Positions 3,384 through 19,656 of a stretch of 64,000 bases of DNA are shown one piece after another. Below the pieces are notes generated by a model. It was not told where the DNA came from. It saw only the letters and a program-made list of their open reading frames with translations, and searched no databases. The DNA is from Escherichia virus TH15. The first letter of the stretch is position 1. Every line of letters starts with the position of its first letter. The position numbers were made by a program, and so were the translations under genes. Where the stretch lies: the sequence record MT446392.1; one strand, given 5' to 3'.

Positions 3384-5618
3384 ATGATTTTAGAAACTGA
3401 AAAAGAAACAATCCTTGGTAATGGTGCCAAGGCATCAGCATTCACAATCCAGGCATCTCCAAAGGTGTTTAAGATTCTGACCAGCGACCTTTACACAAAT
3501 AAGGTGCGTGCAGTTGTTCGTGAGCTGATTACCAATATGATTGATGCTCATATGCTCAATGGCTGTCAGGATAAATTCATTGTTCAAGCTCCTGGTGAAC
3601 TGGACCCACGCTTTGTGTGTCGTGACTTTGGCCCAGGTATGAGTGATTTCCAGATTCGTGGTGATGAAAATACCCCAGGTCTGTATAACAGTTTCTTTGC
3701 ATCATCCAAGGCTGAATCCAATGATTTTATTGGTGGCTTTGGTCTGGGTTCTAAATCTCCGTTCAGTTATACAGAGACGTTTAGCCTGATTTCGTATCAT
3801 GATGGTCAAGTTAATGGTTATGTCGCTTATATGGATGGTGATGGTCCACAGATTAAGCCAACCTTTAGCGAACCAATGAAACCTGGCGACCGCACAGGGA
3901 TTGAAGTTGTTGTCCCGGTTGATAGTAATGATTTTGGTAAGTTCCGCCACGAGATTGCATATATCATGCGCCCATTTGCTGGACTGGCTGAAGTACAAGG
4001 CGTAGGCGAAATTAATTATTTCCCGGAATTTGATGATTATTATGCTCCAGAGCGTATTAATTATAGCAGCCCAGAACGTTATGGTCTTTATGCAATTTAC
4101 GGTGGAATTGTTTATCCAATTGCCGACGGTTATACAAAGAAAACCTGGATGACTGCCAAAAATGATGTTGTCTTTATTAAGTTCCCGATGGGTTCGTTGG
4201 ATATTGCGCCTTCTCGCGAAGCATTATCACTGGATAAACGTACGGTCGCAAATATCGTTGAACGTATTGAATCCCTTGATAAGAAAGTCATGGAAGATGA
4301 TTGTAAGAAATGGCAGGAATCAGAATGTATCCGCCACACGTATCGCGAATTACAGAGTCTGAGTTATGAAGCTCGTAATTTTCTGAAAGCTCGTAATGCT
4401 GAAACGAAATTTACGAAATCGCAATTGACCTTTAACCAGATGTATGAAATGTTCGAGCTGGACAAAGACCTTATTAATGCCGGGGTTGTCTATGATATCT
4501 ATAGCACTACCCGTCTGAAACGTCTGCGTAACTCAAGCTCGAACACGAATACTGCAAGCCTGACGAGCATGTTTGGTATTCAGAATAATACCTTGAACAT
4601 TGTTATTGACGATGCTAAAGGGCGAATTGCGATGATTCGGGGCATCAGTTCAATGCTGTATGACACCAGCGCGAAAGCCAAAAAGCTCAAAGCATCTGGT
4701 AAAGTCCCGACTGTACAAGGTAGTAGCCTATTGTTCGTTGACCCAACCAGCGAAATTCAAACACGTCTGATGGTTCAACTCCAGGAACGATTTAAAGGCG
4801 ATACAGTTAATATCTATCGTACGTCTGAACTGACTGCCCTTGTAAAAGATTGGATTCCGGTTGCGGACCCGAAAGAGCGTGTTAAGTCAAAGACTCCATC
4901 GGTGATTCGTTGGACTAAAACTAATGGTCGCTGGCAGGCTGTTGAAGAATTTACATGTGCAGCTGATGCAGAGGAAATCGATGGTTATGCTGTATTCATT
5001 AACCGCAGTAGCATTTCCCCGTTGAATCAGGATTATGGCGTCACGAACTTCGGGACCCAGACATTGTGCAAACTGGCGAATCTACTGGAAATCAATGAAT
5101 TCTGCGTTATTCGTCCACAGCTTCAGAAAAAGGTTACTAAGCTGGCGCAGTGTGATTGTTTGATTGAAGCTGCAGTCAATCGTTATGTGGAATTGATTGA
5201 TGCGGTTGATGCGGACCAGTACATTGCCGCTTCAAGCCGTTCGCGTTATTATATTCCTATCCTGTCTGAATATGCAGAACTGAATTTTATGTTCAAGTAT
5301 TTTTATGCAAAAGACGTTCAGAAAGATGTGAATACTGACTATGCCGAACTAATGCAGTTCAATAAGTTCTTTTCTTATAACGCATATAACAGCGGAACGG
5401 TTGACAAGACCATGCAGGAAACTCTGGTCCTTTGTAATAAGATTTATGACGACCTGACCAAAAACGCTTCAGTAACAAGCGATAAAATGGTTTTTGAATT
5501 TGAAAAGAATCACCCGATTGTTTCACACTTTTTATATAATCGTAACGCTATGTCAACTGAACAAGTACAGAACGTTGCTCAAATCATGAAGGCCGTGGAA
5601 GCGGCCAATAAGGAATAA
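3384..5618 (+). CDS. rIIA: rIIA membrane-associated protein (lysis-inhibition / Rex exclusion target)
   Basis: 744 aa versus T4 725 aa; position between 39 and rIIB matches T4 synteny. Confidence 0.85.
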   Translation: MILETEKETILGNGAKASAFTIQASPKVFKILTSDLYTNKVRAVVRELITNMIDAHMLNGCQDKFIVQAPGELDPRFVCRDFGPGMSDFQIRGDENTPGLYNSFFASSKAESNDFIGGFGLGSKSPFSYTETFSLISYHDGQVNGYVAYMDGDGPQIKPTFSEPMKPGDRTGIEVVVPVDSNDFGKFRHEIAYIMRPFAGLAEVQGVGEINYFPEFDDYYAPERINYSSPERYGLYAIYGGIVYPIADGYTKKTWMTAKNDVVFIKFPMGSLDIAPSREALSLDKRTVANIVERIESLDKKVMEDDCKKWQESECIRHTYRELQSLSYEARNFLKARNAETKFTKSQLTFNQMYEMFELDKDLINAGVVYDIYSTTRLKRLRNSSSNTNTASLTSMFGIQNNTLNIVIDDAKGRIAMIRGISSMLYDTSAKAKKLKASGKVPTVQGSSLLFVDPTSEIQTRLMVQLQERFKGDTVNIYRTSELTALVKDWIPVADPKERVKSKTPSVIRWTKTNGRWQAVEEFTCAADAEEIDGYAVFINRSSISPLNQDYGVTNFGTQTLCKLANLLEINEFCVIRPQLQKKVTKLAQCDCLIEAAVNRYVELIDAVDADQYIAASSRSRYYIPILSEYAELNFMFKYFYAKDVQKDVNTDYAELMQFNKFFSYNAYNSGTVDKTMQETLVLCNKIYDDLTKNASVTSDKMVFEFEKNHPIVSHFLYNRNAMSTEQVQNVAQIMKAVEAANKE

Positions 5619-5619
5619 T

Positions 5620-6594
5620 ATGTTTAATATCAAATGTATGTCTAAAGCCGAACAAGCTGATGTGGTCCAGATGTATTCAACGGGCAATTATACCCAGCCT
5701 GAATTGGCAGAATATTTTGCTGTGTCCGTTGACACCATTCGCCGCGTTTTGAAAAATGATAAAGAATCAAAATTAGCTAAAACCATTTCTGCATCACTGA
5801 AAGCAGCTGTTGGTGTGGCGATTAATGCTCCGGTGACAGTAACGGTTGAAGTTCCGGTTGTTGAAGATACAATCGGTGGAAGCCGCCCGGAAATCGTATG
5901 GAACGCATCGAGTAAATTCGTTTCCATCACTGAAGGCCGTACAGTCTGGAACGCAACAAAAGACCATAAACACTTTGATGATATTATTCAGGCATTGATT
6001 GAATTCCGTTATGAAGATGCTATTGAGTATATCTCAATCAAAGCCGCAGTGCAAAAATATGTGAAAGGTGATGTGCGTATCGAAGGCGGTAGTTTGTTCT
6101 ACCAGGGAATTGAACTGCGCTCTGGTCTGGTTACTCGTATCATCGATTCAATGCAAAATGGCGAAGACTTTGAATTCTATCTGCCATTCCTTGAGAATCT
6201 CCTTGAGAACCCGAGCGAGAAAGCCGTACAGCGTTTGTTTGACTTCCTGGTTGCGAATGATATCGAAATCACCGAAGACGGTCATTTCATCGCCTGGAAA
6301 ATGGTTCGTTCAACCTACAAAGATTGTCACTCAAACACATTCGACAACAGTCCTGGTCAATATGTTAAAATGCCACGCTCTCGTGTGAATGACAATGACG
6401 AACAGACCTGTTCAACCGGGCTGCACGTTTGTTCTAAAGGTTATATCGGAAGTGGTTTTGGTCATGGTGATGGGCGCATCGTATCCTGTAAAGTTCACCC
6501 GCGTGATGTTGTAAGCATCCCGGTGGATTATAACGATTCCAAAATGAGGGTTTGTGGTTACCTGGTTCTTGACGATGTAACTGAACAATTCTAA
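5620..6594 (+). CDS. rIIB: rIIB protein
   Basis: N-terminus MFNIKCMSKAEQADVVQMYSTGNYTQPELAE and C-terminal HPRDVVSIPVDYNDSKMR closely match remembered T4 rIIB. Confidence 0.85.
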   Translation: MFNIKCMSKAEQADVVQMYSTGNYTQPELAEYFAVSVDTIRRVLKNDKESKLAKTISASLKAAVGVAINAPVTVTVEVPVVEDTIGGSRPEIVWNASSKFVSITEGRTVWNATKDHKHFDDIIQALIEFRYEDAIEYISIKAAVQKYVKGDVRIEGGSLFYQGIELRSGLVTRIIDSMQNGEDFEFYLPFLENLLENPSEKAVQRLFDFLVANDIEITEDGHFIAWKMVRSTYKDCHSNTFDNSPGQYVKMPRSRVNDNDEQTCSTGLHVCSKGYIGSGFGHGDGRIVSCKVHPRDVVSIPVDYNDSKMRVCGYLVLDDVTEQF

Positions 6595-6627
6595 ATTAAT
6601 CGGGGCTTCGGCCCCTAATGAGGCTTT

Positions 6628-6825
6628 ATGTTAGGTTTCCAAGCACGTGTAGTTGAAGAATATGACCAACTGGTCCTAAAAATCAATGCTCTTGAAGAGT
6701 TTATTAAAGGTGGTATTTTTGAAACTCTTGATATCCGTCAACAAGGGTTACTGATTGCACAGCTGGATGCGATGGGTGCTTATGCTCATTGTTTAGCAGT
6801 TCGTATTTCTTATTTTGGTGAATAA
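6628..6825 (+). CDS. Hypothetical protein
   Basis: ORF with GAGG SD, directly after a GC hairpin downstream of rIIB. Confidence 0.3.
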   Translation: MLGFQARVVEEYDQLVLKINALEEFIKGGIFETLDIRQQGLLIAQLDAMGAYAHCLAVRISYFGE

Positions 6826-6828
6826 ATT

Positions 6829-7098
6829 ATGATTAAGCATTTCAATGTGTCAGACCGTGACATCAAAGTTTCAAATCTCCGGGGTCATCATTATGCAGGA
6901 ACAGTTTACTGTGGTAAGCTCATCAAGCATGAAGGTGATGTTCACTATGGCTGGTTGGAATGTGATGAAGTAGTTGTTGGGGAATTTCCTGACCCAGATT
7001 CTGATACATTTGATGCTAATGACCGTTTGTACTATGGCGAGCTTCATATCCGAGGAATCGTCGGTATCGATGAGGTTCAAGATGATTCAGAAGAGTAA
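6829..7098 (+). CDS. Hypothetical protein (acidic C-terminus)
   Basis: ORF of 89 aa, tightly packed after the previous ORF. Confidence 0.4.
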   Translation: MIKHFNVSDRDIKVSNLRGHHYAGTVYCGKLIKHEGDVHYGWLECDEVVVGEFPDPDSDTFDANDRLYYGELHIRGIVGIDEVQDDSEE

Positions 7099-7675
7099 AA
7101 CATGGGAGCATCTGAAAAAGATGCCCTCCTTTCTTTATACAAAGGAAGACTTAACACCCGAATCCATGCAAAAGATTGTAGACACTGCCAGGTATTCATT
7201 GCGTAAAGACCCAGCCCAGGACCGCGAGCAAGTCATGCAAAGATGTATGGTGGCTACAATGGCCGAACAAGCTATTGCCAAATGGACCTCCGGTTTCTTA
7301 TGTGGCGGCGATGAAGATTACAATAACCCGTTCTCTTTTGCATTCGATGTAGTCTCCCAGGAAGGGGTAAGAATCGAAGTTAAGACTCACCAATCTGGCT
7401 CCAAATGGATATCCGTGCATACTGGTCACCAGGGCGATTATCCACGTGGTTACGGAGTTAATCTTGGGCCCTTTATGCAACACAAGCTTGCTGACCTTAT
7501 GATTATGTTTAATGTAAAAGAGACTATCAAAGGTTATAGATTTAAACCAAAATTCCTTGCTGGACCTGGTGCTTTCGTTCCTGAGTCTGGACTTGTGCAG
7601 AAGTCACAAGGGGATGGCTGGTACCTCCGTTCTTGTTCAGAAGAAAAATTTCCCTATCACCGGTTTACAAGCTGA
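7082..7675 (+). CDS. Hypothetical protein; positional candidate for denB (endonuclease IV)
   Basis: About 197 aa from the internal ATG with GAGG SD; lies between rIIB and ndd where T4 carries denB (185 aa). Identity not verified by sequence. Confidence 0.4.
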   Translation: MIQKSKTWEHLKKMPSFLYTKEDLTPESMQKIVDTARYSLRKDPAQDREQVMQRCMVATMAEQAIAKWTSGFLCGGDEDYNNPFSFAFDVVSQEGVRIEVKTHQSGSKWISVHTGHQGDYPRGYGVNLGPFMQHKLADLMIMFNVKETIKGYRFKPKFLAGPGAFVPESGLVQKSQGDGWYLRSCSEEKFPYHRFTS

Positions 7676-7720
7676 ACCAACTGTGTAATAATGTCCTCAT
7701 ACCAACAAATGAGGACATTA
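7663..7720 (+). promoter_or_regulatory. Putative early promoter plus 12-bp SD-sequestering hairpin upstream of the ORF at 7723
   Basis: GTTTAC 7663-7668; AT-rich -10 near 7686-7691; perfect stem 7689-7700 / 7709-7720 containing GAGGA. Confidence 0.45.
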
Positions 7721-7722
7721 TC

Positions 7723-7998
7723 ATGGAACACGTTACTACTCATCACATCAAACAAATTCTTATTCAAGCACTCAAAAACAACAACATCAATTTTCCAACC
7801 CATGAAATTTTTGATGTGGTATTCAACGAAGTCCAGGGCCAAGTTGCATATTATGACGTTATCGTTTATCTTTCAGAATTTGAAGTCTACCACTTGACTG
7901 AAATCGCCTTCTATCTCTATCGCGGAACAGCAGATTTTACTGGGGTCGTGAATGCAGTTGGTGCATATAAAGAAGTTAAAGAACAAATGCACAATTAA
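7723..7998 (+). CDS. Hypothetical early protein
   Basis: ATG 3 nt after a 12-bp perfect hairpin that contains the GAGGA SD; track start 7633 is upstream of the predicted promoter. Confidence 0.45.
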   Translation: MEHVTTHHIKQILIQALKNNNINFPTHEIFDVVFNEVQGQVAYYDVIVYLSEFEVYHLTEIAFYLYRGTADFTGVVNAVGAYKEVKEQMHN

Positions 7999-8000
7999 TC

Positions 8001-8056
8001 AAAAAGTAGTGTACATCAGTATGGAGTCTATGTATAATGATTCCATACTGAGTTAC
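8001..8056 (+). promoter_or_regulatory. Early promoter cassette copy 1 (TGTACA -35, 17-nt spacer, TATAAT -10, conserved leader gattccatactgagttac)
   Basis: -35 at 8010-8015, -10 at 8033-8038; 9-bp inverted repeat (8018-8026 / 8042-8050) encloses the -10. Confidence 0.6.
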
Positions 8057-8072
8057 CAAACTGGAGAATAAA

Positions 8073-8228
8073 ATGAAACCTGCTCAATATGCAATGACTT
8101 TATACCTTGAAGTTAATGGCGATATTACTGAATTTTTTAAATTAATGCAACAGCGTGGTAAAAGTTTTGCAGTTACCGAGCGTCAATTTTACGCTTGCCG
8201 TAAAAATACATACAATCGTTACGCGTGA
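8073..8228 (+). CDS. Small hypothetical protein (51 aa)
   Basis: First ATG downstream of promoter cassette copy 1, with GGAG SD. Confidence 0.3.
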   Translation: MKPAQYAMTLYLEVNGDITEFFKLMQQRGKSFAVTERQFYACRKNTYNRYA

Positions 8229-8238
8229 GGAAAACAGA

Positions 8239-8505
8239 ATGGATATTAAATTATACTACGCCAAACACAAAGTTACAGGTATGGTTGTTGCCGCTATGTA
8301 TGATGCGTCAGGCGATGGTGATGATGTTACTACAGAATTGTCTCTTTCTGAATGTAAATTTCTTCGCCCGCTAGTTGCATCAAAGTGTGATTTAGAAAAG
8401 CTTATTGATGGAAAACTGGATAATGTTGATGGCATAGATATTCTTTATGACCTTCGCACTGCATTGCACAGGGGTCTGATTGAAATAAAAGAGGTGATAT
8501 TTTGA
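8239..8505 (+). CDS. Hypothetical protein (88 aa)
   Basis: Internal ATG with GAGGA SD; track start 8155 is probably not used. Confidence 0.4.
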   Translation: MDIKLYYAKHKVTGMVVAAMYDASGDGDDVTTELSLSECKFLRPLVASKCDLEKLIDGKLDNVDGIDILYDLRTALHRGLIEIKEVIF

Positions 8506-8596
8506 GCAGCAAAACCTGGTGCCTTATCTGGATGCTGTGTATCCCAGTAATTTGCGTTTGTTTTAGTTTATTATTAATGAAACTTGCATAAAAGAG

Positions 8597-8642
8597 TGTA
8601 CATCTCCAGTGGTTGTAGTATAATGAACCTATCAACTACTGG
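8597..8642 (+). promoter_or_regulatory. Early promoter with a hairpin whose 3' arm covers the SD
   Basis: TGTACA 8597-8602, TATAAT 8619-8624; inverted repeat ctccagt (8604-8610) / actggag (8636-8642) spans the -10 and the GGAG SD. Confidence 0.5.
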
Positions 8643-8650
8643 AGATGATT

Positions 8651-8767
8651 ATGAAAAAGTTACTTAAAGCCATTTGGAACATGTTTGTACTGTTTGTTGT
8701 CCTGAGCATTTTCCCAATTGTTTTTATGATTGACCATGTACGTGTTTACTTTAACTATTTCTTTTGA
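8651..8767 (+). CDS. Small hydrophobic peptide (38 aa, one predicted TM segment)
   Basis: ATG follows an early promoter and GGAG; hydrophobic core FVLFVVLSIFPIVFMI. Confidence 0.3.
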   Translation: MKKLLKAIWNMFVLFVVLSIFPIVFMIDHVRVYFNYFF

Positions 8768-8777
8768 GGAAAATATT

Positions 8778-8900
8778 ATGCGGTATAGTTCAAACTTTCA
8801 GAAATCCAATCGTCGCTTTGACTTTATGTTCAAGTTTATTGTGGCGATGATTATCCTGATTTTCATTGGTGCTATTGCAATGATTGGTTTCCAGGTCTAG
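8778..8900 (+). CDS. Small hydrophobic peptide (40 aa, one predicted TM segment)
   Basis: GAGGA SD; hydrophobic core FIVAMIILIFIGAIAMIGF. Confidence 0.3.
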   Translation: MRYSSNFQKSNRRFDFMFKFIVAMIILIFIGAIAMIGFQV

Positions 8901-8980
8901 ATTGCTGCTGAAGTGTTCACGCAAATCCAGGATAATGGTCTGAAGTCTGTTGTTGACGTAATTTGGAATGGAGCTAAGCA

Positions 8981-9226
8981 ATGAAACTTTTTAAAGACAT
9001 TGTAGTTGGTGAAAAATTTGTCCTTGGTAATGGTCAACAATTGATTCGCATTTCACCTTTGATGGATAACAGCGAGCGTCCTGTGCGCACTGAAAACTGT
9101 TTGGATTATCCTTTTTATCAGAAGCGTTTTGCAATTGAAAATAATACTGAGTGCTTCACAGTTGATGAACTGATGGAATCATCAGAAGAAGTTGACTTGT
9201 GGGATGGCGCGGTAGACCCTGAATAA
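8981..9226 (+). CDS. Hypothetical protein
   Basis: ORF with GGAG SD in the ndd-proximal hyperplastic region. Confidence 0.45.
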   Translation: MKLFKDIVVGEKFVLGNGQQLIRISPLMDNSERPVRTENCLDYPFYQKRFAIENNTECFTVDELMESSEEVDLWDGAVDPE

Positions 9227-9242
9227 AATTGAGGAAATCATT

Positions 9243-9587
9243 ATGTCTAAAGTCTTTTTTGGTAATCGCAACATTATGTTCTTTAAACAAATTAGCGTAT
9301 CAGAAGCATTTGATTTAAGTTATTCAGGTGGCACAAAAGTTGTTCACCTTAAAAATTTGATGTCTGCAGAATTTGCGTTCTATCAGGACCCTGAAACTGG
9401 TTTCTATAAATTTATTAAATTCCGTATGACTATGGACCGTGATTATCGCGATGTTTATTATACAAGTTATGAAAGTGTTGTGAATGCAATTCGTGAAGCT
9501 TATGGATTGGATTCATTGTCTCTTGACCGCCTGTATAATGCAAGCCTTTATACTTCTGGATTTATTTTAGAACAGCTACAAAAATAG
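9243..9587 (+). CDS. Hypothetical protein
   Basis: ORF with GAGGA SD. Confidence 0.45.
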   Translation: MSKVFFGNRNIMFFKQISVSEAFDLSYSGGTKVVHLKNLMSAEFAFYQDPETGFYKFIKFRMTMDRDYRDVYYTSYESVVNAIREAYGLDSLSLDRLYNASLYTSGFILEQLQK

Positions 9588-9630
9588 TATACAAACTCTT
9601 GGGGTCAGAGTATAATGACCCCACTGGAGC
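9588..9630 (+). promoter_or_regulatory. Early promoter (TATACA -35 / TATAAT -10) with flanking inverted repeat
   Basis: -10 at 9611-9616 flanked by ggggtca / tgacccc. Confidence 0.45.
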
Positions 9631-9660
9631 ACAAAACTTTAACTTACTGAGGAAATTAAT

Positions 9661-10110
9661 ATGACTACTTACATGACTCGTCGTGACGTACTGAATGCTG
9701 GCGCTACCACTATTGCTTACATCCATAATGGTAATTATGTTGCGGGGCGTCCAACTAAAGAAGCTATCACCCAACCAGGTTTTTATTTCGTGGTCAAAGG
9801 TGAAGGCGAATCACGTATTGTTGCCGCACGTTTTTATGTTGGTAACCAACGTTCACAACAAGGGTTTGACACTGTATTAAGTCACATCCGCAAACAGCGT
9901 TCTCAACTGTCTCGCACAATGGCGAACAATGGGGTTATCTATGAAGTCCTGTTTGTCCCGGTTTCTAAAATGAAACCTCTGACAACTGGTTATGGTAAAG
10001 GTCAAATTGCGATGGCGTTCACTCGCTCGCATAGTTCTGATTGTCAGACCCTTTCAGAAATGAATCGCATGCTTGCTGATAACTTTAAATTCATTCTGCA
10101 GAGCTATTAA
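9661..10110 (+). CDS. ndd: Nucleoid disruption protein Ndd
   Basis: 149 aa; motifs [39 protein letters not shown] and C-terminal [12 protein letters not shown] match remembered T4 Ndd. Confidence 0.8.
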
Positions 10111-10199
10111 TATGAGTAATTTCCATAACGAACATGTGATGCAATGGCATCGTCATAATCTTAAATTAACTGGCGTCTTTGGACGCCCTTGAGGAAAAT

Positions 10200-10367
10200 A
10201 TGACATCAGTCTTTTCATTCATTTATCTAGTGGCGGTCATTGTTTTAGTAACTCTTTTTGTCGCAGGTGTCTTCATCCCGCCTATGTGGTTTGTTTATTT
10301 CTTGTGTGGATGGTTTGTACTGGATGCCTTAGTTAAATTTATGGTTTCCGCGGTGAGCAATGATTAA
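10200..10367 (+). CDS. Small membrane protein (55 aa; ac/stp-region analogue)
   Basis: ATG with GAGGA SD (track start 10179 is TTG); two hydrophobic segments. Confidence 0.35.
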   Translation: MTSVFSFIYLVAVIVLVTLFVAGVFIPPMWFVYFLCGWFVLDALVKFMVSAVSND

Positions 10368-10450
10368 GAAAATCTTGGGCTACTCGTTAGCCCTTGCTGC
10401 CTTATTGGTGGCGCTGTATTATGGAATTGTGTTTGCATTAGTGCAGGTTG

Positions 10451-10475
10451 TGCTTTTTATTTCTGATGCTATAAT
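10451..10475 (+). promoter_or_regulatory. Middle promoter (MotA box TGCTTT plus TATAAT) for gene 52
   Basis: TGCTTTTTA at 10451-10459, TATAAT at 10470-10475; T4 gene 52 is also middle-transcribed. Confidence 0.5.
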
Positions 10476-10504
10476 GGCAGTACATTCACTGATATGGTAA
10501 AAAT

Positions 10505-11836
10505 ATGCAACTGAATAAACGTGATTTAAAAGACATTATTGACGTGGAAGCATTGTCATATGCTATCTACACTGTGGAAGGTCGTGCCATTCCAAACATG
10601 ATTGATGGTTTTAAACCAGTTCACAGATTTGTTATGGCGAGAGCATTAGACCTGGCTCGTGGTGATAAAAATAAATTCCATAAGGTTGCATCCATCGCAG
10701 GTGGCGTAGCTGATTATGGTTATCACCATGGTGAAGCATCAGCTGAAGAAGCAACTTCTGGTTTGGTCGCAACATATAAAAATGAATACCCTATGTTTGA
10801 TGGGCAAGGTAACTTTGGTTCCAGAATGGTGCCAGAAGCATCATCAGCTCGTTATGTATTCGCAAGGGTTTCAAAGAACTTTTACAACTTGTTTAAGGAT
10901 ACAGAATATGCTCCGGTCCATCCTGATGAAGAACATAAGCCTCCTGCTTTTTATCTTCCTGTTATTCCTACTGTATTACTTAACGCCACTTCTGGGATTG
11001 CTGTTGGCTTCGCTACTGATATTCTTCCTCATTCGTTCCAGGACGTCAAGGAAGCTGTTAAAGCTATCGTGGAAGGTCGTGAGCCGGTTGCTCCGAAAGT
11101 AAAATATCCAGAATTCCGTGGTGAAGTTGTTGAGCTGGAAGAGCCTGGTAAGTATGAGCTTCATGGCACGTACAAAATGACTTCCAGAACTCAAATGGAA
11201 ATTACTGAAATTCCAGTCCAATGGAACCTGGAAAAGTATACAAGTAAAATCCTGGACCCGCTGGAAGAGAAAGGTTTTATCACCTGGAAAGATAACTGCG
11301 GCGAACATGGTTTTGGGTTTAAGATTAAATTCCGTAAAGAATACAAGCTGGACGGCACTGAAGAAGAGAATCATGAGAAAATCATGAAAGACTTTGGTCT
11401 GATTGAAAAGCTCTCCCAGAACTTAACAGTGCTTAATCACAAAGGTAAACTGGCTGAATACACCAACACGCTTGACTTGATTCGCGATTTCGTTGATGTC
11501 CGTAAGACTTATGTCCAAGTGCGAATTGACAGTAAGATTAAAGAAACTGAAGCAGCATTTAAACTGGCCCGAGCGAAAGTTTTCTTTATTAAAGAAGTTA
11601 TTGATGGCAAGGTTGTTATCCAGGGTAAACCTCGTAAGAAGTTGATTGAGGAGCTCCAGGCAAGCGAAATATATGGCGATTATGCAGAGAAGTTAGTGGC
11701 GATGAACATCTACCATATGACCTCTGACGAAGCCAAGAAGCTTGCAGACGAAGCAAAGGCTAAGAAAGCTGAGCATGAGTACTGGAAGGCAACTGATGTT
11801 AAAACTGAATACCTTAATGACTTGGAGGCTCTATGA
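10505..11836 (+). CDS. 52: DNA topoisomerase II medium subunit (gp52, GyrA-like)
   Basis: 443 aa versus T4 442 aa; N-terminus with the active-site tyrosine region (SYAIYTVEGRAIPNMIDGFKPVHRFVM). Confidence 0.9.
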   Translation: MQLNKRDLKDIIDVEALSYAIYTVEGRAIPNMIDGFKPVHRFVMARALDLARGDKNKFHKVASIAGGVADYGYHHGEASAEEATSGLVATYKNEYPMFDGQGNFGSRMVPEASSARYVFARVSKNFYNLFKDTEYAPVHPDEEHKPPAFYLPVIPTVLLNATSGIAVGFATDILPHSFQDVKEAVKAIVEGREPVAPKVKYPEFRGEVVELEEPGKYELHGTYKMTSRTQMEITEIPVQWNLEKYTSKILDPLEEKGFITWKDNCGEHGFGFKIKFRKEYKLDGTEEENHEKIMKDFGLIEKLSQNLTVLNHKGKLAEYTNTLDLIRDFVDVRKTYVQVRIDSKIKETEAAFKLARAKVFFIKEVIDGKVVIQGKPRKKLIEELQASEIYGDYAEKLVAMNIYHMTSDEAKKLADEAKAKKAEHEYWKATDVKTEYLNDLEAL

Positions 11837-14616: not shown

Positions 14617-14892
14617 ATGACTAAATTTGAAATCGTTTCTGAAATTGTTACCGTTACTTCAATTTTGATTAAAACCGACCGGGAAGATATTACGATGAAG
14701 CGTGATGTGTTTATCGCGTTTTTGAATGAGTTGGGATTGAGGAATGAGAATGGGAATGAGTTAAACAATGTATCGTTTAACAAGTTGTTTAAAAGTTTAT
14801 CTGAAGATGAAATTGAACAAATCATTGAACAATTTAACGAAGGATTCGAAGATATACACCGATATCTGATGATGTATACCTCCGGATTCTAA
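14617..14892 (+). CDS. asiA: Anti-sigma70 factor AsiA
   Basis: 91 aa; EIVTVTSILIK, FIAFLNELG and FNEGFEDIHRYLMMYT match remembered T4 AsiA. Confidence 0.85.
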   Translation: MTKFEIVSEIVTVTSILIKTDREDITMKRDVFIAFLNELGLRNENGNELNNVSFNKLFKSLSEDEIEQIIEQFNEGFEDIHRYLMMYTSGF

Positions 14893-15542
14893 CGTGTACG
14901 CCCGAGCGTACGACCTGCTTGTCCACACATAGCAGAAAGTCTATCAAAACCAAGGTCTGGTTTCTGAACGTACCAATACAAAGAAACTGTACCTGCGTAA
15001 ACGTTCTCTAGATTAAAGAATGGGCAGCTGAACATATATGCGAAGCTGCTTTTTTTCTTTGTTGGTAAGAATACAAATTCATTACTGGATTCAAAATAAT
15101 TACCATTAACCCCCGCCAAATATTCCGCTGAAGTCTTATCTATTGGAAACCCACCCAAATTTTTCTCGTCAACTGTATCAGGCAATCTCCCTTCGTATCC
15201 AACCATATCCACAAAGTAATTAAGGTTAGTTGGTCTGAAGGAATAAATGGCTGTAAAGTCAGCTCCACTTGATGAATGGACTATCTGGATTTGCTCGATA
15301 GCTGCAATTTTAAATCTGTTGTCCTGGTCTTGCCTTATCATTTCAGTGTACGAGGCATATGAAGCATCCCTGTATGCATCTAAAATTGCATCACCTTTAT
15401 ACCAGATTACCGCCATTAAAAATAATAGAACAATAACTAGTACCCGGGAAAAGACAACTTTCCCGGTCGCATTATCTTTAAAAATTCTATCAAGAAGTCC
15501 AAAAAGTAGGTCGGGGATTGAGATTCCTACTTTTGGTTCCAT
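14889..15542 (-). CDS. t: Holin T
   Basis: 217 aa; DLLFGLLDRIFKDNATGKV, SGADFTAIYSFRPTNLNYFVD and YMFSCPFFNLENVYAGT match remembered T4 holin. Confidence 0.9.
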   Translation of the reverse strand: MEPKVGISIPDLLFGLLDRIFKDNATGKVVFSRVLVIVLLFLMAVIWYKGDAILDAYRDASYASYTEMIRQDQDNRFKIAAIEQIQIVHSSSGADFTAIYSFRPTNLNYFVDMVGYEGRLPDTVDEKNLGGFPIDKTSAEYLAGVNGNYFESSNEFVFLPTKKKSSFAYMFSCPFFNLENVYAGTVSLYWYVQKPDLGFDRLSAMCGQAGRTLGRTR

Positions 15543-15579: not shown

Positions 15580-16380
15580 TTATAGCCATGGTCCATAGAT
15601 AGTACCTGTTGCTCCCCACATCGGGGATGACACTGCAACAGCTGCACCAGAACCGCCGCCGTCACCTCTTTTAAGGACAGAACCACCGTCGGACCATGCG
15701 TTTTGACCTGCGCCGCCAGCATCACCACCTCGTCCTGAGTGGGCGTTACCGTAATCATATCCGCCACCTGGGCTTTCATAAGAAGCGCCACCGCCAGAAG
15801 AACCGCCCCCACCGCCGGGGCCGAATGGTCTTCCGCCGCCGCCGCCAATATCCTGCCAGTTGGCACCAGAGTGTACTCGATAGGCAATGCCGCCACCGCC
15901 ACCGCCGCCACCGCAGATAACACCATAGTTCCAAATACGGAGTCTATGTCCTATATGGTTAACAATACAATCACCACCCCATTGCCCGTTGCCGTCACCG
16001 CCGGAGTGTGTCCAACCACCTTGCCCACCGCGTCCCCACATGTGAACTCCACCATGAATATTCAAAGTAACATATTCGTTAGGAGTATCTCCATTCATAA
16101 AGAATAACGGAACATCACGGGTATAAGATACTAAATCACCTGTGATATTAAACACTATAGGAGCACCACCGGCTTCAAAACAACGGTCACGGAACCATTG
16201 ACCATTAAAGTTATGGTCAGCTCCAAGCGTATGAATAATCTCACGAGAACGACCCGCGAATTGTGACATCCATGAAGGGTTTCCTAAACGAAGTTCCCTC
16301 GAAGCGGCCGACATCCATCTTTGCCCGGTTTCAGCGACGGCTGAAGTCCCAATCCAACCAGGAATTCCTACTACTGCCAT
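15580..16380 (-). CDS. 38: Tail-fibre adhesin gp38 (T2/S16-type, glycine-rich receptor-binding domain)
   Basis: 266 aa directly downstream of gene 37; repeated poly-Gly blocks separated by short variable segments. Confidence 0.75.
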
Positions 16381-16391
16381 ATAAACCTCCA

Positions 16392-16415
16392 GGGCCCGAA
16401 GGCCCTTTTATTATT
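16392..16415 (+). terminator. Plus-strand-oriented intrinsic terminator inside the minus-strand late operon (between 37 and 38)
   Basis: gggcccgaaggccc followed by ttttattatttt on the plus strand; the opposite strand lacks a U-run. Confidence 0.5.
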
Positions 16416-19400
16416 TTATCAATGATTTAATTAATGCTTTCAATTCAGCAATTTCAGATTTCAATTCCTTGATTTCGTCAGTATGCTCGTTGATAGTAGC
16501 AGTATTTAAACCGATAATACCGTTATAGTTTAAACGAAGTAAGCCGGTCTCTTTATCTTCAGAAACAAGTTCAGGCAATATTTCTTGAACTTCTTGAGCA
16601 ATTAAACCTGCAGATGGTTTAACTTCGTCTGTAACAGAGTTTTTAAGCAGATAAGTATAACCACCTAAGAGTTTAGATTTCTCTTGAGCGTTATCGATAA
16701 GCTTAATTTCCGACTTACAACGAATATCAGAACGGATATAAACGTCGTTAACGTCGATATTATCACGAACATACATACCAGCGTTAACGTTAAGGGCGAC
16801 GTTGCCGAATGTCTGAGCAAGCCCAGCACGGAAACTGAATACACCTTGGCCATTAGCATACGCGTTGAAAATACCGTCTGCTTCCCATACCAATCCAGTG
16901 TCGTTATCACCAATAACAATACAAGGGCCCGTCCATACCGGGTCACCGCCACCTGCTGATACTCTGTTGCTCTTAAGTAGGCTAGGGGCATAAAAAGTAC
17001 CGTTACTGTGGAATTCATAGATGGCTTGTGGGTCTGAACCGTTTTCCTGGTTGCCTACACGGATAATACCTTGTGCCCATGTATTAGTGATACGGCGCAT
17101 ACCAAAATCTACACCAGATACATAACCTTCATTAGTAATACCAGATCTTCCTTTAATAATAGGATAATAACTATCATTACCGACATTACCAAAATCCACA
17201 AACACAGGAGCTTCTTGACGCCATTGGTTTATCCAATCGCCAGCCTGGTGCGCAGCCCATTGCGAACCCTTTATATAAAGACGGTCCCTATTAAAATAAA
17301 AAGTATCCGACCCTTGAGGAGCTAAAGCAATTTCCCCACTATTATGAATATTAACGCCTGAATTGGTTCTGAAACTATAAAACGATAGAGCATTATCGGC
17401 GCCACCATTACCTACATACCAGTTATCAACGCCTGCTTTTTGTCCTTTCACATAACCAGATTCGGTTGCAGCACTGTTAATAACAATAGCATCCGAGTTG
17501 GCATTAATAGTTAAGCGACCAGTCATCGTATCGCCTTCTTTAGCCACACGGGAGGCAATAGCATCGCGAATATTTGTAGTGTCTCCTGCTGAAGTGAACG
17601 TTTTCCAGATATCAGAGAAGATGTTACCATTTTTAGCAATAGTAGCTTCGCCGCCCCCAACTTGCACGTTATCCGGGAAGTTAACTGTACCATCAGCATT
17701 AAATCTTGAGGTATGGGCTTGTGAACCATCTTCTTTCAAATGATGTAAAACAAATGTACCTGAATTAATTTCAGTACCCAAAGACCAGACAGCTTTACCA
17801 TTTAAAAACTTCTGTTTAACAATAGGATAATATTTGCTTACAGCATCATCATCAATTTCCTGGAAAATAGGAGCAGCTTGTGAATACTGAATATCATAAC
17901 CACCAGCACCCGCACCGTGTCCACCAAATTTAATAAAACCATTTTCAGCAAAAGTTGTATGGCTCAAATCCAGGTCCGGAATAACCACCTTACCGGTATC
18001 TAAAGCCAAACTAAACGGGCGAAGTGGACCGATGTCCCCAGTTTTACCTTCACCAAAGGCGGTAGGAATAATATGAAGACTTCCTTCTGAACGACGGAAA
18101 ATAGCGGCGTAATCGTCGTTCCAAATTCTAAGAGCATTGACCGCATTACCAGCAATAGTGCCGGAGACGTTAACTTCCTGACCGACATTTATACTTTCGT
18201 TTACGCCCAAAGTTCCATTTAAATGACTTTGAATAGCACCTGAAGACAGACGTTGATAATATTGAATCCAGCTAGTTGCATCAGATATTTCCATTACGTT
18301 TTTACGGTCGCCATCAACATTAGTAAAGGTATTACCCCAAACGGCGATAGTCATATTATCAACTGAACTACTTCCTGTAGTATTTCCTCTAAACATTAGT
18401 GTAGAAGCATTGTTGCGGCCGTCGATATTAACCGAACCGCCGATAACATTAATATCACCTGGGGTAACTAACAACCCACCAGCGGTGTTAACGTTTGTAG
18501 TGCCTTTACCACGGAAATAGTGGTGATAATTACCACCTTGATAATATCCTAAAAGGGTTTGACCGTCGCCGTATGCGTTATTATCGTGGTAGGTAACTAC
18601 AGTTGCCAGGGCATAGTTTTCTGCCGGTGGCGTTGTCATAAGAACCCCATCTGGAGAATATCCCATTACCATTTTTCTAAGGCTTTGGGTTTCTTCTGGG
18701 CCATAGATGAAAGTTCTTATGCCGTTGTTTACTGTATGGAAATATCCATCTTGGTGCCATTTTAAGCCTGTATCATTATCACCAAGGGCAATTGAAGCTG
18801 TTCCTAATTCGGAATATCCTTTAGGACCGTGTGGAAGACCTACAGAAACAGAATGACCCGCTTTCAACCCACCAGACCAAGTAAACGACCAAAGATATGC
18901 CTCTAATCCGTCGCCAGCATACCAGGTTATCCCATCATTGTCTTTAACCTCATGGAATATGCCAGCGCCTACAGCATTTCTCATAACACGAAGATGGTTA
19001 ATTGCTGTTTCGCTTTCGGTTAAAGGAGCATTATCAGCCATTGAATAGATGTCATAATCACCCGCCTTCTTGCCGTTGGTAATAACTTTATCGGTCAGAA
19101 TTTGTGGCGAAGAAATAGATTTCCACGCTGATACCTCAGGAGCTGTGAAAAGACCATTACCTGAAAACGCGTAAGTGCTTTCACTTCCTGCAGCGTAATC
19201 TTGGACGCGAATATTAACTACTTGATTGGTAAGACCTGCATTATTTGGCGAAAAGATAATACCGCGTTCTCGGTCATCGCCATCAAAGAAACGAAGGTGA
19301 GAAGTTGAGGCGCTCTTAGAAATCAGTTCGCCGCCTTCAGTCATTATCTGACCTGCAGCAATAATATCGCGAGTTACACGAGCAATTCCGGTTAAATTAA

Positions 19401-19656
19401 AATTACCTGTCTGAGTGAAGGTGCCATTGAGGGTATAATCGCCCGTTTGGTTGTAATTGCCTTTATGGATAACGTTACCATCAATATTGCCACCCTTAGC
19501 AAAACCAAGGTCAATAATAGCTCCGGTATCATCCTTTGTGAATAACAAGCGGTCTTTCAAGTTAATTGCGAGTTCACCTTCAGCCAATACAGTTGGGGTT
19601 GGGCGGACACCAGCAATTTTACTTCTTTTAAATTGTATTTGTTTTAAAGTAGCCAT
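16411..19656 (-). CDS. 37: Long tail fibre distal subunit gp37 with C-terminal intramolecular-chaperone-like domain
   Basis: 1081 aa, position between 36 and 38; C-terminus DIRCKSEIKLI...GLIAQEVQEILPELV plus coiled coil resembles S74-type auto-cleaving chaperone domains. Confidence 0.85.
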   Translation of the reverse strand: MATLKQIQFKRSKIAGVRPTPTVLAEGELAINLKDRLLFTKDDTGAIIDLGFAKGGNIDGNVIHKGNYNQTGDYTLNGTFTQTGNFNLTGIARVTRDIIAAGQIMTEGGELISKSASTSHLRFFDGDDRERGIIFSPNNAGLTNQVVNIRVQDYAAGSESTYAFSGNGLFTAPEVSAWKSISSPQILTDKVITNGKKAGDYDIYSMADNAPLTESETAINHLRVMRNAVGAGIFHEVKDNDGITWYAGDGLEAYLWSFTWSGGLKAGHSVSVGLPHGPKGYSELGTASIALGDNDTGLKWHQDGYFHTVNNGIRTFIYGPEETQSLRKMVMGYSPDGVLMTTPPAENYALATVVTYHDNNAYGDGQTLLGYYQGGNYHHYFRGKGTTNVNTAGGLLVTPGDINVIGGSVNIDGRNNASTLMFRGNTTGSSSVDNMTIAVWGNTFTNVDGDRKNVMEISDATSWIQYYQRLSSGAIQSHLNGTLGVNESINVGQEVNVSGTIAGNAVNALRIWNDDYAAIFRRSEGSLHIIPTAFGEGKTGDIGPLRPFSLALDTGKVVIPDLDLSHTTFAENGFIKFGGHGAGAGGYDIQYSQAAPIFQEIDDDAVSKYYPIVKQKFLNGKAVWSLGTEINSGTFVLHHLKEDGSQAHTSRFNADGTVNFPDNVQVGGGEATIAKNGNIFSDIWKTFTSAGDTTNIRDAIASRVAKEGDTMTGRLTINANSDAIVINSAATESGYVKGQKAGVDNWYVGNGGADNALSFYSFRTNSGVNIHNSGEIALAPQGSDTFYFNRDRLYIKGSQWAAHQAGDWINQWRQEAPVFVDFGNVGNDSYYPIIKGRSGITNEGYVSGVDFGMRRITNTWAQGIIRVGNQENGSDPQAIYEFHSNGTFYAPSLLKSNRVSAGGGDPVWTGPCIVIGDNDTGLVWEADGIFNAYANGQGVFSFRAGLAQTFGNVALNVNAGMYVRDNIDVNDVYIRSDIRCKSEIKLIDNAQEKSKLLGGYTYLLKNSVTDEVKPSAGLIAQEVQEILPELVSEDKETGLLRLNYNGIIGLNTATINEHTDEIKELKSEIAELKALIKSLIK

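Follow-up and report, generated by a model that had tools for sequence, protein, structure and literature searches.

What do the very short open reading frames (ORFs) between the rIIB and 52 genes of T-even bacteriophages encode, and are the hydrophobic ones amongst them the part of the region in which one phage departs from another? The question was raised by a stretch of 64,000 nucleotides from Escherichia virus TH15 (sequence record MT446392.1), referred to here as the window and numbered from its first letter. A first-pass annotation, made from the sequence alone, had noted in it an expanded rIIB–52 interval with several small membrane peptides and had suggested that its content differs from that of T4. 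We find that the cluster is real but already catalogued in close relatives, with most of its genes belonging to PHROG or Pfam families, and that the membrane peptides, as judged from their sequences, form a conserved backbone common to the window and T4 and not the divergent part. Three observations were seen nowhere else, namely a private amber truncation of a DUF7248 gene, the identity of T4 ndd.3 and ndd.2a as one split gene, and the occupation of the ac position by a gene that is not ac.

In a DNA search the interval (6595-10504) had matches in 280 phage records, the best being vB_EcoM_VR25, VR7 and UPEC01 with 95 % identity over 95-96 % of the query. The best-matching phages are classified in the Straboviridae, Tevenvirinae, genus Gaprivervirus, and across the interval the Gaprivervirus genomes VR25, VR7, VR20, VR26, UPEC01 and SP18 show 92-95 % DNA identity (for VR25, VR7 and UPEC01 at a coverage of 89-96 %); no gene of the interval is without an annotated counterpart amongst the six records. 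On the left, the interval is bordered by rIIB (5620-6594), itself preceded by rIIA (3384-5618), and on the right by the gene for the gp52 topoisomerase subunit (10505-11836). These flanks, together with the Gaprivervirus matches, bear out the earlier placing of the region in the T-even rIIB–52 interval. The stretch is very probably the classical non-essential T-even accessory region between rIIB and gene 52 in its Gaprivervirus (VR7/VR25-like) version; in T4, the region is removed by deletions such as sa-delta-9 and rII-delta-DD2.

From the ORF list, inspection of start sites and Shine-Dalgarno sequences and the annotations of VR25 and UPEC01, 15 genes, all on the plus strand, were recognised between rIIB and 52. 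The earlier count of about eleven small ORFs was thus too low, and had missed stp as well as a fifth hydrophobic mini-gene at 8502-8591. Nine of the 15 have counterparts in T4, in T4 order (DenB.1, DenB, Ndd.6, Ndd.4, Ndd.3/2a, Ndd.1, Ndd, Stp and gp52.1), with 44-85 % protein identity in BLASTP searches against T4 proteins. The two phages are alike in flanking genes, orientation and gene order and in the run of tiny hydrophobic proteins. The T4 interval contains denB.1, denB, ndd.6, ndd.5, ndd.4, ndd.3, ndd.2a, ndd.2, ndd.1, ndd, stp, ac and 52.1, whereas the window adds five soluble ORFans and a protein of family phrog_9347 and is without ndd.5, ndd.2 and ac. The proposed difference in content from T4 holds for these gains and losses; it does not hold for the flagged membrane peptides, as three of the four, and the fifth peptide too, are T4 orthologues in T4 order; the membrane peptides are therefore regarded as the conserved part of the region.

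Identity and coding evidence of the hydrophobic mini-genes

Five tiny hydrophobic proteins are encoded in the interval (an Ndd.6-like protein, Ndd.4, the truncated DUF7248 protein, the phrog_9347 protein and gp52.1), and purifying selection was found on all of them. The four ORFs flagged earlier, at 8651-8767, 8778-8900, 10200-10367 and 10360-10500, all exist as described. Each has a Shine-Dalgarno sequence, a best 19-residue Kyte-Doolittle mean between 2.4 and 3.0 and a match to a phage protein family at E-values of 1e-7 to 1e-24, so that small peptides with one or two predicted membrane helices are indeed present.

The first two had been described as adjacent peptides with a single transmembrane segment. 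This stands for 8651-8767, the orthologue of Ndd.4, a protein of 38 residues with one transmembrane helix and a Lys-rich N-terminus (61 % identity to T4 Ndd.4, E 2e-16; phrog_3098, E 2e-23; maximum 19-residue Kyte-Doolittle mean 2.43), whose gene lies in a synteny with an early promoter before it and the DUF7248 gene after it. It does not stand for 8778-8900 as a complete gene, since this ORF holds only the first 40 of 68 codons. The overlooked Ndd.6-like protein (8502-8591, plus strand) is a Cys-rich, single-helix protein of 29 residues with 46 % identity to T4 Ndd.6 (E 2e-10; phrog_8851, E 2e-15). Its gene follows the block downstream of denB, precedes the ndd.4 promoter and begins with a TTG codon overlapping the stop codon of the gene at 8239-8505; the same TTG start is annotated in VR25 and UPEC01. 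At the right end of the interval, 10360-10500 encodes the very hydrophobic gp52.1 orthologue of 46 residues (85 % to T4 gp52.1, E 9e-28; phrog_3595; Pfam DUF7396, 69.9 bits against a cutoff of 27), which overlaps 10200-10367 by 8 nt and ends 4 nt before the start codon of gene 52.

Are frames as short as these translated, or are they chance frames in AT-rich intergenic DNA? Their length (29-55 codons), the readiness with which T-rich DNA yields hydrophobic codons and the TTG start of one of them would fit the latter. Comparative genomics across T4-like phages, the check asked for in the first-pass annotation, speaks for translation. From IMG/VR, 15 related loci that contain Ndd homologues were taken; together with VR25, UPEC01 and T4 they served for a presence/absence matrix and for dN/dS estimates by the Nei-Gojobori method, each gene being compared with 5-17 related loci. 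For pairs with informative divergence the mini-ORFs gave dN/dS values of 0.04-0.25, similar to those of Ndd (0.11-0.18 at comparable divergence). By gene, the ranges were 0.04-0.38 for the Ndd.6-like protein, 0.08-0.22 for Ndd.4, 0.03-0.20 for gp52.1 and 0.23-0.59 for the phrog_9347 protein, where the high values come from pairs that have three or fewer changes or are saturated; the hydrophilic Stp gave 0-0.36. Because these values are as low as in Ndd, we conclude that the mini-ORFs encode proteins and are not chance ORFs. Conservation across genera with many synonymous changes effectively refutes the chance-frame explanation, whose probability we regard as negligible; properly spaced Shine-Dalgarno sequences, tight packing with overlapping start and stop codons and matches to the curated families DUF7396 and DUF7248 also stand against it.

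Searches of 50,697 phage records found Ndd.4 relatives in 594 and Stp relatives in 604; T4 Ac has relatives in 460 of these records, the phrog_9347 protein in 48. No small protein of the interval has a meaningful match in NCBIfam, and in Pfam the membrane proteins match only domains of unknown function (DUFs). In two Yersinia phage records (PP693301.1 and MH809535.1), small genes under the Ndd.4 and DUF7248 matches were seen to be mislabelled as 'naphthalene 1,2-dioxygenase'.

The DUF7248 gene in the window and in T4

The ORF at 8778-8900 (plus strand) is a truncated member of the DUF7248 (Ndd.3/2a) family that ends at an amber codon, TAG, at 8898-8900. The 40 residues kept comprise a basic N-terminus and a transmembrane helix and align to positions 1-35 of the 63-position profile. 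Codon 41 is TAG here and TGG in VR25, UPEC01, VR20 and VR26, a single G>A difference. In these four relatives the product has 68 residues, in which a single transmembrane helix joins the basic N-terminus to a C-terminal tail of 27 residues, and the stop codon of the full gene overlaps the start codon of ndd.1. The lost tail is still encoded in the window as an in-frame remnant (8901-8984, plus strand) without a start codon of its own, which shows 100 % protein identity to VR25 and 58 % identity to the C-terminus of T4 Ndd.2a (E 1e-8). When the stop codon is conceptually read through, the 68-residue product matches Pfam PF23906 at 88.4 bits (cutoff 27) and phrog_2401 at an E-value of 5e-25. In this isolate the amber codon would therefore, if genuine, remove the predicted periplasmic tail of the protein.

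The complete gene of 207 nt has no 100 % match in the phage records, the best being VR20 at 99.0 % with TGG, and the context of the TAG has no exact match in IMG/VR. The nonsense change is hence either private to this isolate or an error. The latter possibility weighs against a true truncation: the TAG may be a sequencing or assembly error, or may be read as Gln in a supE host, in either case leaving a full protein of 68 residues. It is a lone G>A difference from four relatives, the 27 codons downstream are undamaged and identical in protein sequence to VR25, and the amber codon is followed by A, a context favouring suppression. A recent mutation would, however, likewise leave the downstream codons intact, and no suppressor tRNA for the TAG is encoded in the window, in which no tRNA gene at all was found. 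In T4, moreover, this gene has lost 1 nt, so that its disruption is evidently tolerated. On balance we consider it unlikely, though far from negligible, that the TAG represents no real loss. Programmed readthrough or recoding at this codon was also considered and found unsupported, as all relatives have a plain TGG.

The T4 annotation shows a disruption of a different kind. What are annotated in T4 as 'ndd.3' (26 residues) and 'ndd.2a' (40 residues) were found to be one DUF7248 gene, whose reading frame has been broken in two by the loss of a single nucleotide from codon 2 (NC_000866 locus, 4933-5129). The T4 reference reads ATGAACGT in the region of codon 2, where five close relatives with an intact frame of 64 codons, encoding 64 residues, read ATGAA[G/A]CGT (loci L012-L017 compared). 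With an amber codon in the window and a 1-nt deletion in the T4 reference, the gene has thus been disrupted on at least two independent occasions. One could suppose that on certain hosts the periplasmic tail is harmful to the phage, for instance as a trigger of defence.

Stp and the gene in the position of ac

In T4, as the first-pass annotation pointed out, ac and stp lie in this region, and stp had been taken there as a model for the hydrophobic peptides. Stp itself is present in the window. It is encoded at 10112-10192 (plus strand), starting 2 nt after the ndd stop codon, as a peptide of 26 codons that matches Pfam PF08133 at 55.3 bits (cutoff 25) and phrog_6763 at an E-value of 2e-19; T4 Stp, of the same family, likewise has 26 residues and follows directly on ndd. 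The peptide is hydrophilic (grand average of hydropathy, GRAVY, -0.87) and unrelated to the hydrophobic mini-proteins, and the data give no support for its use as a model for them. It is the only mini-protein of the cluster with an established function: in T4, Stp counteracts restriction of type Ic (EcoprrI, EcoR124I) and switches on the anticodon nuclease PrrC.

The window peptide is 80 % identical to T4 Stp (20 of 25 residues aligned by BLAST), and the last residue differs too, with P for Q. The N-terminal 18 residues, described as almost invariant and as the segment to which loss-of-function mutations map (PMC3014915), agree with T4 at 15 of 18 positions, the differences being F12W, Y13H and N15H. 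The same allele is found in 39 of the 604 Stp-bearing phage records, against about 440 with the T4 allele, and is a maintained variant. It could be an escape form in which anti-restriction is kept and activation of PrrC is avoided by W12, H13 and H15.

Three further observations concern stp. A hairpin, GGCGTC-TTTG-GACGCC (10172-10187), lies within its last codons and closely precedes the Shine-Dalgarno sequence of the gene that follows. In UPEC01 (locus L002, 5157-5315), Stp is annotated as the C-terminus of a 52-residue ORF with an upstream start codon, which is an annotation error. Stp-like frames of 25-26 residues also occur in Raoultella phage RP180 (NC_048181.1, 43056-43130; 76 %) and Shigella phage Sf12 (NC_047848.1, 45894-45965; 54 %), two phages of 45-48 kb which we presume to be T1-like siphophages outside the T4 group.

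In the position occupied by ac in T4, between stp and 52.1, the window encodes a protein of 55 residues in which two helices are predicted and a G-V-W/F-x-P turn is conserved (10200-10367, plus strand; phrog_9347, VR7 gp281). The two proteins resemble each other in position, small size, predicted two-helix membrane architecture and the overlap of the last codons with the start of 52.1, but their sequences are unrelated. BLASTP against T4 Ac gave a non-significant E-value of 0.067. T4 Ac and UPEC01 Ac match phrog_2501, the window protein matches phrog_9347, and a profile-profile comparison of phrog_9347 with Ac (hhalign) returned a probability of 0.3 %. Searches by tblastn with T4 Ac or UPEC01 Ac found nothing in the window, which is therefore without Ac. 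In JS98-like genomes, Ac-type and phrog_9347-type genes stand in tandem (loci L010, 4166-4622, and L011, 5038-5494), and we therefore regard them as separate genes and not as alleles. Against 5.8 billion proteins, the window protein found three near-identical clusters only, and no annotated or bacterial relative.

The stretch from ndd to 52.1 is combinatorial, with an optional 57-residue two-helix protein of phrog_5941 before stp and an optional Ac and an optional phrog_9347 protein after it. The phrog_5941 cassette lies between ndd and stp in UPEC01, L010 and L018, and in L007 between ndd and the phrog_9347 gene, no stp ORF having been found at that locus. UPEC01 differs from the window in carrying a T4-type Ac together with this extra hydrophobic cassette in place of the phrog_9347 gene. 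That phrog_9347, Ac, the 57-residue cassette and gp52.1 might be diverged paralogues was rejected, all profile-profile probabilities being below 1 %.

Expression of Ac makes E. coli sensitive to acriflavine, and an action on AcrAB-TolC has been proposed (bioRxiv 10.1101/2025.06.30.662393; cited in PMC13250531). Might the phrog_9347 protein be a non-homologous replacement of Ac, blocking efflux of the AcrAB-TolC type or raising dye uptake? It shares with Ac the position, the size (55 against 51 residues), the predicted two-helix hairpin and the overlap with the 52.1 start, and most genomes examined have one gene or the other. The lack of similarity in sequence and profile and the assignment to different PHROGs argue against it, and the co-occurrence of both genes in L010 and L011 argues for distinct functions. 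We consider such a replacement improbable.

Soluble cassettes, promoters and stem-loops

The interval had been called expanded, and it is, measuring 3910 bp here and 2760 bp in T4; the additional DNA nevertheless encodes soluble proteins and not membrane peptides. The difference of 1150 bp is accounted for by five soluble ORFan cassettes, all on the plus strand. The first (6829-7098) encodes a DUF7418 protein of 89 residues (Pfam PF24193, 115 bits; phrog_2237) with no match in the T4 locus. The second (7723-7998) encodes 91 residues (phrog_17571, VR7 gp288) and is found only in Gaprivervirus loci. The third (8073-8228) encodes 51 residues with no match in PHROG, Pfam or NCBIfam, and is present in UPEC01 and absent from VR25, in which the deletion has its two ends exactly at the start codons of this gene and of the one that follows, and lies directly after the second of the promoter cassettes described below (compared with VR25 2361-2438). 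The fourth (8239-8505) encodes 88 residues (phrog_2390, VR7 gp287), and the fifth (9243-9587) 114 residues (phrog_10053, VR7 gp283) that are not encoded in the T4 interval. At the place equivalent to 8073-8228, T4 was seen to have a promoter, a Shine-Dalgarno/ATG scar and an 8-codon mini-ORF before ndd.6.

The remaining soluble genes, also on the plus strand, have T4 counterparts. They encode a DenB.1 homologue of 65 residues (6628-6825; 52 % to T4 DenB.1, E 1e-20; Pfam crAss001_48, 68 bits; phrog_774), the 197-residue endonuclease IV DenB (7082-7675; 45 % to T4 DenB, E 3e-54; phrog_1360, E 3e-80), which is annotated likewise in VR25 and whose gene start overlaps the DUF7418 gene by 17 nt, the 81-residue Ndd.1 orthologue (8981-9226; 51 % to T4 Ndd.1, E 2e-19; phrog_2183) and the 149-residue nucleoid disruption protein Ndd (9661-10110; 62 % to T4 Ndd; Pfam PF06591, Phage_T4_Ndd, 231 bits).

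Four intergenic, plus-strand elements of the interval resemble the promoter/stem-loop cassettes (PeSLs) of T4-type phages, as defined by Arbiol et al. 2010 (PMC2839356). Each has a putative sigma-70-like promoter with 10 of 12 consensus positions and A-rich upstream sequence; the z-scores of their hairpins are relative to shuffled sequence. Cassette 1 (7664-7721) has TTTACA-17-AATAAT (7664-7692) and a perfect 13-bp stem (7688-7700/7709-7721; -20.2 kcal/mol, z -5.3) that covers both the -10 box and the Shine-Dalgarno sequence of the ORFan at 7723. Cassette 2 (8010-8056), conserved in VR25 and UPEC01, has TGTACA-17-TATAAT (8010-8038) with the -10 box in a 13-bp hairpin (-22.5 kcal/mol, z -4.3). 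Cassette 3 (8597-8647) has TGTACA-16-TATAAT (8597-8624) and a 15-bp stem (8601-8615/8633-8647; -25.5 kcal/mol, z -5.5), the 3' arm of which includes GGAG, the Shine-Dalgarno sequence of ndd.4; in T4, too, an early-type promoter precedes ndd.4 at this position. Cassette 4 (9588-9625), upstream of ndd, has TATACA-17-TATAAT (9588-9616) and a GGGGTCA/TGACCCC stem around the -10 box (-19.5 kcal/mol, z -2.9).

The count of promoter-like matches weighs against these assignments, as the interval has 14 while shuffled sequences have 12.4 +/- 3.7, which is no enrichment. Because of this, the four promoters are proposed on position, strand, A-rich upstream sequence and hairpins and not on statistics. The terminator-like matches on the plus strand lie, in our scan, inside coding sequence, and none is convincing as an intrinsic terminator.

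For the T4/PST pair, the published PeSL consensus is TTTACW-N17-TAYWAT, and PeSL-mediated exchange of ndd.4/.5 has been described in this very region (PMC4122927, Comeau et al. 2014). The four elements are like published PeSLs in the sigma-70-like promoter, the stem-loop overlapping the -10 box and the location upstream of variable ORFans. Cassettes 1 and 3 are unlike them in that the stem also covers the downstream ribosome-binding site, which resembles the translational control exerted by hairpins in T4. Such control by RNA hairpins operates in T4 on gene e, soc and I-TevI. We propose that these putative promoters would drive transcription of the genes of the interval within the first few minutes after infection, and that in read-through transcripts the stem would sequester the ribosome-binding sites of ndd.4 (8651) and of the ORFan at 7723. 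Transcripts from the cassette's own promoter would be without the 5' arm, and only these would be well translated. Recombination at the PeSLs may shuffle cassettes, giving the combinatorial presence and absence amongst relatives.

Directly after the rIIB stop codon lies another hairpin, GGGGC-UUCG-GCCCC (6602-6615, plus strand; -11 kcal/mol), with a tetraloop of the C(UUCG)G type and not followed by a T-run. The T4 hairpin in this position, GGC-UUCG-GCC, is weaker, and in T4 a further hairpin, of the CUUCGG type, follows denB.1. Outside the interval, the minus strand at 15580-16380 shows a peak in GC content (0.51-0.56 against about 0.40 elsewhere) at a glycine-rich ORF of 266 residues. We take this ORF to be a gp38-type tail-fibre adhesin and its neighbours to be holin t (217 residues, 14889-15542) and gp37 (1081 residues, 16411-19656). 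The peak looks like a compositional effect of Gly codons and not like foreign DNA.

What the mini-proteins may do

The hydrophobic mini-proteins are expected to insert into the inner membrane, and by the positive-inside rule the basic N-termini of Ndd.4, the DUF7248 protein and gp52.1 predict an N-in topology. Being too small to be enzymes, they probably work through binding to larger proteins. We propose that they would be accessory modulators of host envelope functions that bind larger host membrane proteins; candidate targets would lie in efflux or permeability, in the synthesis of phospholipids and possibly in defences linked to the membrane. A bacterial precedent is AcrZ, which binds AcrB. 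Bacterial small membrane-protein regulators of this type likewise have 30-55 residues and one or two helices and bind larger membrane proteins (PMC12648545); they have no sequence relationship to the phage mini-proteins, and any likeness of function is hypothetical. In T4, the sa-delta-9 deletion, which removes 52.1, ac, stp, ndd, ndd.1-6 and denB, yields about 50 % of the normal progeny, but infection no longer stimulates the synthesis of phospholipid (phosphatidylglycerol) (PMC6071114).

Several considerations weigh against this proposal. The modulator mechanism is put forward by analogy, and both the translation of the mini-ORFs and their insertion into the membrane are what we infer from sequence. 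The literature and databases give no function for Ndd.4, Ndd.6, DUF7248, phrog_9347 or gp52.1, only 'products unknown', the wording used for ndd.1-6 in PMC6071114 as well; functional data on ndd.1-ndd.6, 52.1 and the small membrane proteins of T4 were found only in Kutter et al. 2018, reviews on Stp and the 2025 preprint on Ac.

A defence-related role would be another explanation, in which membrane-associated components of host immunity or restriction would either be inhibited by the mini-proteins or detect them, on the model of Stp with EcoprrI and PrrC. The neighbourhood is suggestive, as they adjoin genes of proven host interaction, namely rIIA/B, which counter RexAB, and stp. Their combinatorial presence and absence amongst close relatives is typical of arms-race genes, and the independent disruption of the DUF7248 gene in T4 and in this phage points the same way. 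Stp, however, is hydrophilic and unrelated to the mini-proteins, and Ndd.4 (about 600 records), Ndd.6 and gp52.1 are widely conserved and under strong purifying selection instead of evolving fast. Literature searches found no link of the mini-proteins to any defence system, and for the tie to restriction or anticodon-nuclease components suggested in the first-pass annotation we found no evidence. We therefore hold the defence-related role to be rather doubtful. A bolder reading, to which we give somewhat less credence still, is that the region holds an arsenal of membrane mini-proteins, shuffled by PeSLs and drawn from at least seven families unrelated to one another (Ndd.6, Ndd.5, Ndd.4, DUF7248, the 57-residue phrog_5941 cassette, Ac, phrog_9347 and gp52.1), each hitting a different host inner-membrane machine, for example an efflux pump, an enzyme of phospholipid synthesis or a membrane-bound defence sensor.

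Envelope modulation thus remains our preferred proposal for the mini-proteins. The broader, decades-old question of what role the conserved membrane mini-proteins of T-even phages play, and which one, when deleted, accounts for the missing phosphatidylglycerol stimulation in sa-delta-9, is not advanced by the window. Its value is mainly corrective, for annotation: the phage has Stp, it has no Ac but an unrelated protein in the ac position, its DUF7248 gene is truncated, and ndd.3 and ndd.2a are the halves of a single T4 gene. For the biology of the phage, these corrections lead to predictions. Its DUF7248 protein would be without the periplasmic tail, its Stp allele may behave differently towards EcoprrI and PrrC, and the phage would be naturally acriflavine-resistant, unless the phrog_9347 protein substitutes for Ac.

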